Notes under the pieces: generated by a model
The model's input: only the letters and a program-made list of their open reading frames with translations
The model's database searches: none
What the model was told of the DNA's origin: nothing
Assembly (NCBI GenBank): GCA_003151815.1
Contig: PLYN01000012.1
Span: forward strand, 183 to 64,182
Source: Bacteroidota bacterium
GTDB lineage: Bacteria; Bacteroidota; Bacteroidia; 2-12-FULL-35-15
DNA: 64,000 bases
Direction: 5' to 3'
Part shown: one piece after another, positions 2,250-21,699 of the stretch
How positions within the stretch are numbered: position 1 is the first letter of the stretch
Layout of the letters: each line of letters starts with the position of its first letter
Position numbers and translations under genes: made by a program

Positions 2250-3854
2250 TTATTTAAAACTAAATCGGGCAAATTTATATTTTCCTTTTTTGAAAGGGAT
2301 CATGCAACAATAAACCCCTCTGTTTAATGCAGGTACAACCAATTGATTTTTTGAGATCATTGTATATGATTTTGGCATGAGAACCATTTTATTCTCTTTG
2401 TTACTGAATAATAATTTTTTGTCGAAGGAACCGCTTTCAGAAAGGGATACTAATACAGCAGAAGATTTATAAGGATTATTCATTACTCTTAATTTTTCTT
2501 TTGAATTTATGTTTTCGGGGGTAACATTTTTTGAATTGTCATTATAAATGAAATAGGATCTATTATTGACAAAAGCAAACATATAAGAACTATAACGCCC
2601 TCCATCATTAACAGTATGTTGTAATTTAGGAATGTTTGTATACCATATGATATTTCCTTTATTATCAATATTTATAGCAACAATGTTTGCTCTTACATAA
2701 TGATATACTGTTCGGCATGTAGTAACCCCATTAGATGTCGAGCAAACTGTTTCAGAATAATCATAAGTGTTTTCAGCCACTAACAGAGCGCCCCCATCGT
2801 CTTTTTGAATAAAATCTTTCAAGGTAAACGATGAAGCTATTCCTCTCCCTTTGTTTGCCTTTTTTTCTGATGTAAGGTCAGCAACAAATTTCTTATCGAG
2901 GTCTTTTAAACTACTTGCCGAAATTGCTTTTGTTTTTTTATCAATTCTTATATAAAAAATGCCATTAATTTCATCATGTGATCTTCCTTTTTGCTCAATA
3001 TTATTATAAAATCCGGAACAGATGATATCATTATCAACAACCGTATACGAAATATCGGTAATGTATTTTTTTGCAAGTTTAATTTCATATTCTATCACCT
3101 CACCTTTTCCGGCAGGATTAATGGCTACAATTTCGTTATAATATTCAGGCTCCCCCTTTTCTTTCTTGTCTCTAGGAAGTTGAATTTCCGCCAACATGTA
3201 TATAATTCCATTTTTTGCCAAAATATAATCATTAACAGAAAAATTTTTATCTTTATAAGGCAACACTATTTCGAGGTTGCTTAATTCTTTCAGATTTTCG
3301 TCATAAATTTTAAATCCAAATTTTTCATTCTCATATTTATCAAAAGGAGGGTTTTTTACGATCAAAATTTTTGTTGAATCCTGAGATGCATAAATATCAA
3401 ATGCGCCCATTTTACGTCTACTTTCAGAGGTAATTTCAGATATTTTTTTCAGGCTGCCGGTTAAGTTACCTTCATCGGTTATTTCTTTAACAAAAAACGT
3501 ATTCGTTTTTTTTTCTTTGAGTGTAACACCTACGTATGTTTTATTTTTTAGAACTAAAAAATCATTAAATTTATAATCATTGTCAATAATATTTTTTCCA
3601 TCCTTACTATTGCCAATCATCGGGTATTCATTTTTTACCTGTAATCCATCTATAGAAATTTTCAAAATGCTTTTTTTCTTGAAACCAATGGAATTGACTC
3701 CTAATAAAAGATTATTTCTTTTTACTAAAATTTCAGGAATTCCTCCTTTTGCAAGCGGATTGTCTTTCCCCCAAAAAATATCAACCTTTTGAGCTGTATT
3801 TGTTTTATGTAATAATGATAGAATTAATAGTGCTAAATAAAATTTATTTTTCAT
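2250..3854 (-). CDS. Hypothetical secreted protein (534 aa)
   Basis: Long ORF with an N-terminal signal-peptide-like segment (MKNKFYLALLILSLL) and beta-rich composition. No family recognised. Confidence 0.8.
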   Translation of the reverse strand: MKNKFYLALLILSLLHKTNTAQKVDIFWGKDNPLAKGGIPEILVKRNNLLLGVNSIGFKKKSILKISIDGLQVKNEYPMIGNSKDGKNIIDNDYKFNDFLVLKNKTYVGVTLKEKKTNTFFVKEITDEGNLTGSLKKISEITSESRRKMGAFDIYASQDSTKILIVKNPPFDKYENEKFGFKIYDENLKELSNLEIVLPYKDKNFSVNDYILAKNGIIYMLAEIQLPRDKKEKGEPEYYNEIVAINPAGKGEVIEYEIKLAKKYITDISYTVVDNDIICSGFYNNIEQKGRSHDEINGIFYIRIDKKTKAISASSLKDLDKKFVADLTSEKKANKGRGIASSFTLKDFIQKDDGGALLVAENTYDYSETVCSTSNGVTTCRTVYHYVRANIVAINIDNKGNIIWYTNIPKLQHTVNDGGRYSSYMFAFVNNRSYFIYNDNSKNVTPENINSKEKLRVMNNPYKSSAVLVSLSESGSFDKKLLFSNKENKMVLMPKSYTMISKNQLVVPALNRGVYCCMIPFKKGKYKFARFSFK

Positions 3855-19125: not shown

Positions 19126-19260
19126 CTATCGTCTGGGAGAATAGGGTACGCGGATTGCAACCGGGGTGGCGGCAATCTTGAATGTAAACAAAACAGCAAT
19201 CGTGCTGAACATCTTGTCAGCTGCTGAAAGGAAGTTGGAAAACAACTTTGCTTTTTTCAT
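19126..19260 (-). CDS. Candidate arg leader peptide MKKAKLFSNFLSAADKMFSTIAVLFTFKIAATPVAIRVPYSPRR (44 aa)
   Basis: ATG-initiated ORF between a TATATTTG box (19313-19320) and the arg operon. It ends AGA CGA TAG inside a 6-bp hairpin. Confidence 0.65.
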   Translation of the reverse strand: MKKAKLFSNFLSAADKMFSTIAVLFTFKIAATPVAIRVPYSPRR

Positions 19261-19435
19261 TTCTTTGCAAATAAAAGAATTAAACTTTAGTTAATTATAA
19301 TCTTTAAGATTGCAAATATACGTTTTTTTGAAAACGTACACATTATTTTTTTGTTGGGGAGATATGGATCATAAATTCATTTTTCAAATATTTATTTCGT
19401 AACTTTACGTTATAAACACTCAAAATAAATAAACA

Positions 19436-19672
19436 ATGTACACTACATATCACTTAACATCGGCACAAGAGGTAAGTTCTGATATATTAGATGCTATTAA
19501 AACTACCTTCAAATCAAAACCAATTACAATCATTGTAGAAGAGGACGAAGGCGACTACGAACTATCTAGCGAGATGAAAAATGTATTGGATGAACGTTTA
19601 AAAGAGGAGGTAAAAACGTATATTTCTTCTGAAGATTCAATAAAACAACTTAACAAAAAATATGGCTTATAA
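19436..19672 (+). CDS. Probable type II antitoxin
   Basis: 78-aa acidic protein overlapping a downstream RelE/ParE gene by 11 nt. Confidence 0.75.
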   Translation: MYTTYHLTSAQEVSSDILDAIKTTFKSKPITIIVEEDEGDYELSSEMKNVLDERLKEEVKTYISSEDSIKQLNKKYGL

Positions 19673-19955
19673 AATTCTTCTTTCGCCAAGGGCGCAAAAG
19701 GAAATTGAAAATGCCATTGATTATTATGCTTTATATAGCACGAAGGCTCCACAAAAATTTGTTTATGCCTTAAAAGACTCCTTCGACATATTAGCTTCAA
19801 ATCCCTTCTTTAACATACGTTACAAAAATATCAGAGGACTTAAACTTAAACGATTCCCCTACTCATTATATTTTGTAGTAAATGAATCAGAAAATACCGT
19901 CCGGATTCTTGCTTGCTTTCATAACAAAAGACATCCTGATAAACATCCCAAATAA
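19662..19955 (+). CDS. RelE/ParE family toxin
   Basis: ILLSPRAQKEIENAIDYY...NPF...KRFPYSLYFVV...VRILACFHNKRHP. Confidence 0.9.
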   Translation: MAYKILLSPRAQKEIENAIDYYALYSTKAPQKFVYALKDSFDILASNPFFNIRYKNIRGLKLKRFPYSLYFVVNESENTVRILACFHNKRHPDKHPK

Positions 19956-20075
19956 TTGGAATAGCCCACTATTCAAAAATTACTATCTTTGAATAAACCG
20001 AAAAAACATCTCCTATCTACCCAAATTGGAAAGATTGGAGAAGTTTTTTGGATGAAAACTTCCCCTATAACTAAG

Positions 20076-20716
20076 TTATGCGTCATGCTGATAGACGAAA
20101 AAACCAGTAGAGAATTAGATTAATATGGAACAATTAAATCGAGACAAAACATTTAATGATGGACTTTCGCTATTATCATTGTCTTTGTTATTTTCCATAA
20201 ATCCATGGCTTATTCCAATTACTTTCTTCTTTATTATTTATGGAATTAGACAGATTGTAAAAGATTCAGAAAAGACAAACAAAAAAAAGATACTTGGAAT
20301 TCTAATTCCATTTTTATGTTGGCTTCCTTTGACTGTAATATTTTATGAACTTTATATGAAAGACAAAATTTGAAAAAATAGAAATAAAATTTGCGACTAC
20401 CGCTGTGTATTAAGACAGACCAGTGTTTGCAGACCTTTGTTTTTATTGCACGTGGACAGGAAAGTGGGCGACAATTTTGTTCGGAATTTTTTCAGACCTA
20501 TATTTAGACACAAAGTATAACAACCTTTGTGTATTAATACTAACAAGCGTTTGCAGACCTTTGTTTGAAAAGTGTAAATCGAAAAAGTAGCACGAGGGCA
20601 TAACAGCGGCAAGAAAGTGTTGGCGCTTGCGATGAACTTCGGAATTATTTATAAATTTATGTGCAGTAAAACAGTGAAGGAAGTATTTATTCCGCAATTC
20701 TTTAAGCCGCAAACCG
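20076..20716 (+). mobile_element. Solitary integron-type gene cassette (no integrase in window)
   Basis: The 5' core GTTATGC (20075-20081) is the exact reverse complement of the inverse core GCATAAC (20598-20604) after the gene. The attC closes at CCGTTAG (G|TT at 20716/20717). Confidence 0.72.
20125..20373 (+). CDS. Small two-TM membrane protein (cassette cargo)
   Basis: 82-aa ORF with two hydrophobic segments, starting 44 nt after the cassette core site. Confidence 0.7.
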   Translation: MEQLNRDKTFNDGLSLLSLSLLFSINPWLIPITFFFIIYGIRQIVKDSEKTNKKKILGILIPFLCWLPLTVIFYELYMKDKI

Positions 20717-20722
20717 TTAGTA
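20598..20722 (+). other. attC-like recombination site (125 bp)
   Basis: GCATAAC-A-GCGGCAAGAA ... TTCTTTAAGCCGC-AAACC-GTTAGTA, giving R''/R' boxes and an inner imperfect inverted repeat. Confidence 0.72.
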
Positions 20723-20742
20723 AAATAAGCTCTTATTTAGAA

Positions 20743-21582
20743 TTATCCCTCCGGCAAACTAGCTTTTACATATTCTCCCAATACAGAAAAGTGATTGGTA
20801 GCTTTGTTAATTTGCTTCATTGCTTTTTGAAAATGAGCGTGGTCATTTTTTTTCCATTCCAGATCTAAATAAAAAAAGTATTCGCTGGGTTCTCCATAAA
20901 CAGGCACACTTTGTATCTTAGAAAGATTAATACTATTCTTTACCAAAACATTTAGCACATCGGCAAGAGAACCTACTTTGTGTTTTAACCTGAAACAGAT
21001 AGACGCTTTATTAGGGTTTTCAGGTATTTCATCTGCTTTGGTAAGAATTAAAAAACGAGTATAATTGTGTTTGTTGTTTTCAATTCCTTTAAACAATATA
21101 GGAACGTTATAAAGCTTTGATGCAAATTCATTGGCAACGGCAGCAGTATTTTTTAATTTATTATCGCTTATATTTTTTACACAGGATGCAGTATCACCTT
21201 GCTCAACAATTTTAATATGAGGATATTTATTAAGAAATACAGTGCATTGCGCCAATGCCATTGGATGAGAATGAACAAATTCAATGTCAGAAATTTTCAC
21301 TCCTTTTAATGCCAGTAAATTCAATTCAATTTTTAAATATTGTTCTCCAATTATTCGCAGTTTATATTGGTTTATCAAATTATAATTGGGCAAGATACTT
21401 CCCGCCAAAGAGTTTTCAATGGCGAGTACAGCGTATTTTGCATTGCCTGTTTTTAATGCTTCGGCACATTGCATAAAGGTATAACACTCTAAAAGATCTG
21501 CATCTTTTCCATAATATTTTTGCGCAGCCAAATAATGAAATGAACCTGCTGTACCGAAAATCGCAACTTTAGAATTTTGCAC
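20743..21582 (-). CDS. pheA: Prephenate dehydratase
   Basis: GTAGSFH, AIENSLAGS, SHPMALAQC, NYTRF and an ACT domain (NLSKIQSVP). GTG start. Confidence 0.95.
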   Translation of the reverse strand: MQNSKVAIFGTAGSFHYLAAQKYYGKDADLLECYTFMQCAEALKTGNAKYAVLAIENSLAGSILPNYNLINQYKLRIIGEQYLKIELNLLALKGVKISDIEFVHSHPMALAQCTVFLNKYPHIKIVEQGDTASCVKNISDNKLKNTAAVANEFASKLYNVPILFKGIENNKHNYTRFLILTKADEIPENPNKASICFRLKHKVGSLADVLNVLVKNSINLSKIQSVPVYGEPSEYFFYLDLEWKKNDHAHFQKAMKQINKATNHFSVLGEYVKASLPEG

Positions 21583-21621
21583 TTTATTAATTGTTTAATT
21601 ATTTTGAAATCCCTTCGCTCG

Positions 21622-21676
21622 TTTCTCGACTCCGCTCGAAAAGACAACGGTTGTCATTTCGAGTGGAGTCGAGAAA
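21622..21676. repeat. REP-like inverted dimer, TCGACTNCGCTC family
   Basis: tttctcgactccgctcgaaaagacaac g gttgtcatttcgagtggagtcgagaaa. Confidence 0.88.
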
Positions 21677-21699
21677 GTGTATAACCTTAAACACTTATT

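Follow-up and report, generated by a model that had tools for sequence, protein, structure and literature searches.

Layout of the locus

We analysed a 64,000-nt stretch of a Bacteroidota metagenome-assembled genome (MAG; contig PLYN01000012.1 of assembly GCA_003151815.1), referred to here as the window, in which the region 19999–20722 has the layout of a single integron-type gene cassette. The source assembly consists of 61 contigs totalling 2.53 Mb (34.6% G+C; 76.6% complete). All on the forward strand, the region holds an attI-like site (19999–20085, placed by alignment with recombinase-proximal sites of other genomes), a cassette proper of 641 nt (20076–20716, assuming a G|TT crossover as in integrons) with an orphan open reading frame (ORF) of 82 aa as its cargo (20125–20373), and an attC-like element of 181 nt with a decayed outer 5' arm (20540–20720, placed by nhmmer and family alignment). 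Before this element lies a decayed partial copy of it, corresponding to the 5' half (20396–20519) and recognized from direct repeats and self-matches; the two stand in tandem, with a direct repeat at 20396–20442 and 20520–20566 (83% identity) and further matching blocks.

The neighbours of the locus are pheA, whose 3' end faces it, and the arginine operon. Its chromosomal flank, pheA, encodes prephenate dehydratase (20743–21582, reverse strand; PF00800 PDT, E = 9.6e-55), and the pheA stop codon is 22 nt from the end of the attC-like element. On the other side is a ParE-type toxin-antitoxin pair (19436–19955, forward strand), comprising a 97-aa ParE-family toxin gene (19662–19955; PF05016 ParE_toxin, E = 1.7e-8) and a 78-aa ORF (19436–19672) without a significant Pfam match, which is a putative antitoxin gene based on its position and its 11-nt overlap with the toxin gene. 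The ParE gene stands in the slot taken by a recombinase gene in congeners. We rejected the pair as a conserved partner of the attI-like site, as the fetched loci of ParE homologues in the genus (≤43% identity) held neither the repeat nor a convincing attI-like motif.

From pheA to a conserved 44-codon mini-ORF ahead of the arginine operon, the window spans 1,482 nt (19261–20742) compared with 86 nt in the distant congener G064, whose pheA–arg intergenic DNA is not alignable to that of the window; the extra DNA consists of the toxin-antitoxin pair, the attI-like site, the cassette and the repeats. In the closest relative, G056, the pheA and arg regions are rearranged and lie 12 kb apart with no element there, which makes this genome useless as an empty site. 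Both borders of the cassette are GTTA-NNNN-(C/T)xA junctions of the type found throughout the family described below, reading GTTATGCGTCA on the left and GTTAGTAAAAT on the right, where the presumed crossover gives G|TTAGTAAAAT. The left junction matches GTTATGCGTAA, found after an array element of the congener G001 (L043_733).

The attC-like element and its family

An earlier note, made from the letters of this DNA alone, had described a solitary integron-type cassette, and its sequence features are all present: GTTATGC at 20075–20081 with its exact complement GCATAAC at 20598–20604, GCGGCAAGAA at 20606–20615 facing TTCTT-TAA-GCCGC at 20698–20710, AAACC-GTTAG at 20711–20720, a TATCTTTG box at 19984–19991 and the small ORF. 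The proposed integron-type architecture of the cassette was borne out, and its site belongs to a genuine family of attC-like sequences. A low-stringency BLAST search of intergenic DNA against its own assembly yielded about ten copies of the segment 20604–20720, and a profile search of the same genome gave 10 matches with E ≤ 3e-12 on 9 contigs, plus weaker fragments. The family is present in 40 of 68 congeneric genomes, and the signature ATAAC-AGC...GCAAACC-GTT, for which the note had suggested a scan, recurs in the genome itself, in the genus and at the array ends of other genera.

Intact members are imperfect palindromes of ~180 nt that run from CTAAC to GTTAG. Their 5' end reads ...GC(N3-4)(C/T)TAAC-A-GCGGC-TAAAAAAAATGCGGAG and their 3' end TTCCGCAC-TTTCTTTA-GCCGC-CAAC(C)-GTTA(G/T/C), with conservation ending right past GTTA. 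An attC site is defined as an imperfect palindrome that has R'' (RYYYAAC)/R' (GTTRRRY) and L''/L' boxes and folds into a hairpin. Set beside this definition, the family has (C/T)TAAC ... GTTA(G/T/C) ends, GCGGC/GCCGC inner boxes and long paired arms, at a length of ~180 nt and with an asymmetric spacer. When folded as single-stranded DNA, intact copies were more stable than shuffled sequences on both strands (z = −3.3 to −5.8), and some of the minimum free energy (MFE) structures were a single long hairpin from CTAAC to GTTAG. We gathered 51 full-length copies from this and related genomes, of which 50 allowed both arms to be extracted. The arms co-vary (TAAAGAAA/TTTCTTTA, CTTATGTG/CACATAAG, CACACGC/GCGTGT and ATGCTGG/CCAGCA) and pair better with their own partner (mean −15.4 kcal/mol) than with the arms of other copies (mean −11.3 kcal/mol), the own partner being the better one in 45 of 50 cases. 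Because the arms co-vary and prefer their own partner, the family is a structured palindrome and not a mere conserved string. RNAalifold, applied to 10 copies, found one inner 8-bp stem only, the outer arms lying outside that alignment.

The window copy matches the ~180-nt family profile over 20574–20718 (nhmmer, E = 1.3e-29) and, as a member of this repeat family, is more than a chance arrangement of motifs. Based on the family alignment, its ancestral 5' end is the CTAAC at 20540–20544 and its 3' end the GTTAG at 20716–20720, so that the 125-nt site of the earlier note (20598–20722), which reads ATAAC-A-GCGGCAAGAA ... TTCTT(TAA)GCCGC-AAACC-GTTAG, is the 3' two-thirds of a 181-nt element. The GCATAAC of the window aligns with an internal GCATTTTTTC in other members and not with an end, and the AGCGGCA(A)GAAAGTG that follows it is an internal segment conserved across the family. 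In the window this segment, which now stands after TAAC, pairs with the 3' arm at −14.2 kcal/mol, close to the family mean, while the outer-arm duplex reaches just −7.4 kcal/mol and the fold of the whole element has a z-score of about −1. The outer 5' arm has decayed, and the 125-nt short pairing survives. This short form is a real pairing, which may be either functional or accidental.

In several congeners, family members form co-oriented arrays with a spacing of 0.7–1.4 kb, in which copies alternate regularly with ORFs. The longest comprises at least 18 units over about 21 kb (G001, contig C84), and arrays of three to five units occur in G056, G063, G021 and G062. In G004 (contig C7), the gene of a 380-aa tyrosine recombinase heads an array in which ORF and element alternate on the same strand for 13 kb. 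Each ORF is separated from its element by 0–40 nt, and each element from the following ORF by about 25 nt. Sedentary chromosomal integrons are built in this way.

The attI-like site

A 44-nt match between window positions 20035–20078 and a spot after gyrB on contig C54 revealed a second conserved element, upstream of the cassette. It is composed of a box (AAAAAACATCTCC, 20001–20013), a centre (TATCTACCCAAATTGG, 20014–20029), an inverted box (TGGAGAAGTTTTTT, 20036–20049) and a third box copy (AAAACTTCCCC, 20055–20065), followed by TATAA-N-TAA|GTTA-NNNN-CAA, which in the window is TATAACTAA (20066–20074) and GTTATGCGTCA (20075–20085). The window segment 19990–20090 aligns with recombinase-proximal sites of G027, G028, G043 and G004, as well as of Flavobacterium, Pseudopedobacter and other genera. 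In G027, G028 and G043 the site is located directly past the stop codon of the recombinase gene, with cassettes next, and of 49 recombinase loci from other genera, 23 have a site with this ending past the gene, at a constant distance of 70–100 nt. Together, the window element and its attI-like site match a pattern of ~130–200-nt TAAC/GTTA palindromes after co-oriented ORFs, with a proximal site TATAnnnAA|GTTAnnnnCAA.

By this homology, the GTTATGC at the left boundary, which the earlier note had read as an integron core site, is the GTTA junction of the attI-like site. The note had also proposed an off-array insertion next to pheA. The left boundary falls inside a homologue of the recombinase-proximal site, so the locus is better described as a small platform without an integrase than as a random insertion away from an array. 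Nor did the TATCTTTG box hold up as a promoter of the cassette: a 13-bp hairpin that has a T-run stands downstream of it, in the attI-like region, the aligned flanks contain no TAnnTTTG box or other conservation at its position, and in the integrase-linked copies the flank that matches its position adjoins the 3' end of the recombinase gene.

The match on contig C54 is a second attI-like site without an integrase gene (C54:69465–69560, reverse strand; L142, about 3440–3560). It lies directly past the gyrB stop codon and is followed by three co-oriented ORFs of unknown function (153, 234 and 123 aa), among which an attC-like element was not detected. Separately, the 1.48-kb insert in the window is enriched in TAAC-N3-5-GTTA mini-palindromes, with three of them compared with 125 genome-wide (2.5 Mb). 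They are located 20 nt before the antitoxin start (19400–19412; ACGTTATAAACAC, R'-like), inside the ParE gene (19811–19822) and at the attI-like junction (20068–20078), and are not present at recombinase-proximal regions. A different arrangement was seen in G021 (contig C32; L042 8060–8560), where the recombinase gene and the first element are divergent and separated by 490 nt; this gap holds a GTTATGCCGC junction and then about seven direct repeats of (C/T)GACC/GACAA at a spacing of roughly 30–40 nt.

The associated recombinase

Genes of the recombinase head or adjoin elements in G001, G004, G021, G027, G028 and G043. G056 and G062 carry the recombinase too, with no element detected in the stretch fetched around the gene. 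Relatives of the recombinase are widespread in Bacteroidota and occur at a minimum of 576 candidate loci. Among the 80 loci that we kept are ones from Flavobacterium, Algoriphagus and Pseudopedobacter, as well as from MAGs labelled Chitinophagales, Crocinitomicaceae, Bacteroidales, Rikenellaceae and Ignavibacteria; many loci lie at contig ends. On the 3' side of the gene, arrays are present in F. limicola, F. saccharophilum and F. palustre, and also in a MAG that was deposited as Chitinophaga pinensis. In these arrays of other genera the repeat bodies differ and the ends are alike (...TAACA(G/C)C... and ...GC.GC(C/A)AAC(C)GTTA).

In NCBIfam, the recombinase is matched by NF040815 ('tyrosine recombinase/integron integrase', XerA type) at 192–228 bits, with a cut-off of 220. 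The IntI model TIGR02249 gives the array-linked recombinases 190–209 bits, under its cut-off of 265, and matches them in two stretches (about 3–179 and 238–315) that skip model positions ~180–237. About 12 residues replace about 58 model positions there, which is the segment of the IntI-specific insertion. When compared with structures in the PDB, the recombinase matched XerA at 138 bits in one stretch and the Vibrio cholerae integrase VchIntIA/IntI4 at 111 bits in two, and it has an N-terminal extension of 100–270 residues. Judged by these comparisons, the enzyme is Xer/IntI-related and not IntI, being without the IntI-specific insertion, and therefore the system is integron-like rather than a canonical integron. 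The description of the cassette as mobilized by IntI, which the earlier note had given, does not fit a recombinase of this kind.

The genome itself contains no such gene in its assembly, which at 76.6% completeness cannot prove absence, either at the locus, as the note had observed, or elsewhere: the best tblastn matches to the array-type recombinase were ordinary Xer-like genes (36% identity), and the best match to the IntI model scored 77 bits. Among 67 congeners none exceeded the TIGR02249 cut-off in a search that included no IntI-positive control genome, with the best two-stretch sums at about 190–216 bits. An IntI search of the genus at E ≤ 1e-40 was empty, and the two-stretch recombinase came to light only once the threshold was relaxed.

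In G004 and G027, the recombinase gene is immediately preceded by a conserved ORF of 119–120 aa on the reverse strand that encodes a Cys-rich protein (M..C.EC.D..KGR.DKK.CSD.CRN.YNN...; L038 16499–16858 and L150 8935–9297, respectively). Seen in these two genomes, it may encode a partner protein of the platform.

Cargo genes and shared blocks

The 82-aa cargo ORF of the window has two hydrophobic stretches. It belongs to no Pfam family, has no homologue in the 68 congeneric genomes and, in a set of 5.8 billion clustered proteins, had no match besides itself. Such orphans are the norm for integron cassettes. Genes beside other copies in the same genome encode MazEF (twice), a HigB/HigA-like pair, an AAA_15/AAA_21 ATPase and a PLD-family nuclease, a cargo typical of cassette arrays.

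Shared blocks and duplications were found in three cases. A block made up of an attC-like element, mazE and mazF occurs at C14:21033–21919 and C19:96444–97336 (890 nt, 87% identity) in different chromosomal contexts; it begins where the upstream element does, at its 5' end, and breaks off about 10 nt inside the downstream element, which on C19 is reduced to CTAATACTTA. The copy on C13 and a unit of the G063 array have in common the element plus 90 nt downstream. In the long G001 array (C84; L031 3449–7132), cassettes are duplicated in tandem (Y,Y,Z,Z) and flanked by chimeric elements whose 5' half goes by the identity of the upstream ORF and whose 3' half by that of the downstream ORF, a pattern that points to unequal exchange within the repeats.

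At a contig end of the same genome as the window (C11:92300–98780; L011) we also observed a mini-array of two full attC-like elements and one weak one between co-oriented ORFs. Among their products are an AAA_15/AAA_21 ATPase and its 166-aa partner, a PLD-family nuclease-like protein and membrane orphans, and the set looks defence-like.

Interpretation and alternative explanations

We consider it likely that 19999–20722 is an integrase-less, partly decayed unit of a Bacteroidota integron-like gene-cassette system. The order of its parts, with an attI-like site, one cassette (the 82-aa membrane-type ORF) and an attC-like site, is that of intact congeneric platforms. There, a Xer/IntI-related tyrosine recombinase encoded just upstream of the attI-like site would act on both types of site, using the conserved GTTA motif to recombine the attI-like site with an attC-like site that is folded or paired, with the outcome that units of an ORF plus its site would be inserted or excised. 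The data show that the site belongs to the family, how the arrays are built and that they are tied to the recombinase, as well as the homology of the attI-like site, the compensatory changes in the arms and the missing IntI insertion; we infer the recombination itself, the use of folded single strands and the position of the crossover. The window unit is most likely a fixed relic, and at best a substrate for a recombinase supplied in trans, because the recombinase gene is absent from the locus and the assembly, the ParE pair is in its place and the outer 5' arm has decayed.

Several observations weigh against this interpretation. About 10 solitary copies are scattered on long contigs, unlike in classical integrons, and the recombinase is without the insertion that IntI needs to recognize folded attC sites. 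The bottom-strand attC hairpin expected by the earlier note is formed by intact family members and not by the window copy: the segment 20590–20730 folded at −9.3 kcal/mol on the bottom strand, worse than the shuffle mean (z = +1.09), and at z = +0.38 on the top strand, and trimmed versions of the site (z = −0.8 to −1.3; −0.76 for the bottom strand in one fold) were no better than shuffles, though the MFE structure of the site does include the terminal pairing that the note had described. The 82-aa ORF, for which there is no homologue, might not be a real gene. The shared blocks do not stop at GTTA and fit homologous unequal exchange as well as site-specific exchange. Finally, no recombination product, circle or empty-site variant was observed, with no search of sequencing reads made for them, and a second public assembly has an identical locus.

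Some of these points would also be expected if the family were a non-autonomous palindromic mobile or REP-like element (a miniature inverted-repeat transposable element, MITE, a repetitive extragenic palindrome, REP, or a bacterial interspersed mosaic element, BIME) that invades intergenic DNA by itself and has no functional link to the recombinase, the window copy being a decayed insertion and the ORF incidental. Such an origin would account for the roughly 10 solitary copies, spread over 9 long contigs in a genome that lacks the recombinase, and for common blocks that do not end at GTTA; the terminal inverted repeats CTAAC.../...GTTAG resemble MITE ends, and the genome has other palindromic repeat families. 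We nonetheless regard it as unlikely, given that each repeat in the arrays is accompanied by roughly one ORF or ORF pair, always in the same orientation and with gaps of 0–40 nt, that in several genomes the beginning of the arrays is a conserved site immediately past the gene of a single recombinase family, and that other genera keep the ends and the recombinase linkage though the repeat body differs. In addition, the flanks of nine copies showed no visible target-site duplication, contrary to what was looked for in a MITE or REP element. It is very unlikely that the element serves mainly as an intergenic signal at the RNA or transcriptional level, for instance as a bidirectional terminator or mRNA-stabilizing hairpin, and is conserved for that role and not for recombination. 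Family members are always intergenic and co-oriented with the flanking genes, and their stable hairpins carry compensatory changes, including two covarying pairs in the inner stem GCAAACGC/GCGTTTGC. Yet Rfam gave no credible match for the window region or for seven loci with intact copies, the two strands fold to the same degree, in keeping with a palindrome at the DNA level, and a length of 180 nt with conserved TAAC/GTTA ends that match the recombinase-proximal GTTA junction goes beyond the needs of a terminator; a role in termination would, moreover, not exclude one in recombination.

The proposal of the earlier note, a canonical IntI/attC cassette placed at a secondary site by an IntI encoded in an unassembled part of the genome, gains from the incompleteness of the MAG and from R''/R'-like ends and L-like boxes that resemble those of attC. 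We find it the least probable of the explanations, since nothing in this genome or the 67 congeners passed the TIGR02249 cut-off in the search described above, the array-linked recombinase has no IntI insertion, and the left boundary is an attI-like site and not a random GTT. The integron-like cassette system thus remains our preferred explanation, and it admits a bolder form that we offer tentatively and with more doubt than confidence: a second kind of integron that functions without the IntI insertion and extends beyond a single array, in which a recombinase acting in trans founds and services a number of small capture platforms around the chromosome, giving a distributed integron. This idea is based on the two integrase-less attI-like sites (next to ParE and past gyrB on C54) and the roughly 10 attC-like sites that are scattered through the genome and carry toxin-antitoxin and defence-like cargo. 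In this view, the attI-like site may itself be mobile.

Comparison with known systems

Sedentary chromosomal integrons, exemplified by the Vibrio cholerae superintegron with its ~125-nt V. cholerae repeat (VCR) attC sites, are similar to the Bacteroidota system in several ways. Both have long arrays in which the cassettes, mostly of a single gene, share one orientation and each precede a homogeneous imperfect palindrome with ...AAC / GTT... ends; both have a primary site beside a tyrosine recombinase gene; and in both the cargo is rich in toxin-antitoxin pairs, defence-like genes and orphans. The direction of the recombinase gene, which is the same as that of the cassettes, is shared with the 'inverted-integrase' group of integrons, such as that of Treponema denticola. 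In contrast to sedentary integrons, the Bacteroidota recombinase is without the IntI insertion, has the N-terminal extension of 100–270 aa and is nearer to XerA. The sites are longer (~180 nt), and the spacer between inner box and TAAC/GTTA is 1 nt on the 5' side versus about 5 nt on the 3' side. The attI-like site has a conserved build of its own (box, TATCTACCCAAATTGG, box, TATAnnnAA|GTTA), and many solitary copies are scattered over the chromosome.

Measured against what defines an integron, co-oriented cassette arrays starting from a primary site beside an integrase gene were found in G004, G027, G028, G043 and other genera; the window holds the attI-like site and one cassette, with the integrase gene absent; and no integrase with the IntI-specific additional domain passed TIGR02249. 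The system is integron-like in every architectural respect tested and fails the defining IntI test.

Xer recombinases (XerA of Archaea, XerC/D) are the most similar in sequence and in the length of the catalytic domain, and Xer dif/pdif modules are likewise gene modules bounded by short recombinase sites. Sites of the dif type are ~28-bp double-stranded sequences with two 11-bp arms, and not 180-nt palindromes. To our knowledge, Xer systems build no long co-oriented cassette arrays headed by the recombinase gene.

Clusters of attC sites lacking a nearby integron integrase (CALIN), and single attC sites and cassettes of this kind, have been interpreted as degraded integrons (PMC9024848). The window locus and the C11 mini-array fit this category in form. 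They differ in that the category rests on the canonical attC covariance model and on IntI, and in that the window locus keeps an attI-like site, which is not required of CALIN. Integron surveys report almost none in Bacteroidota: in the IntegronFinder 2.0 survey, the Bacteroidetes, from which only In0 elements had been known earlier, yielded one complete integron, in Salinibacter (PMC9024848), and a 2024 preprint placed Bacteroidota among the clades previously found without integrons. Our literature searches found no published description of the present system.

As an individual locus, the window region is a decayed relic with orphan cargo. It leads to a widespread cassette system with integron logic in a phylum where surveys had found next to none, and it adds a defined attI-like site able to exist without an integrase, evidence of scattered cassettes and sites instead of one array, and a natural example of the decay of a unit. 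If the recombinase does handle folded attC-like sites without the IntI insertion, the insertion would need to be revised as a hallmark of integron integrases, and annotation would gain access to an extensive pool of mobile accessory genes in Bacteroidota from both environmental and host-associated settings.

Neighbouring features of the window

Two further features adjoin the locus. Upstream of the arginine operon, the 44-codon mini-ORF (19126–19260, reverse strand) ends in ...PRR-stop and is kept in G064 (MKKVKLSSNFLSAADK...FPRR) and in many congeners. Between pheA and a VIT-family gene, at 21604–21680, lies a palindromic repeat of ~60–75 nt, which belongs to a separate REP-like family found at 85–92% identity, on both strands, in dozens of places in many genomes of the genus.

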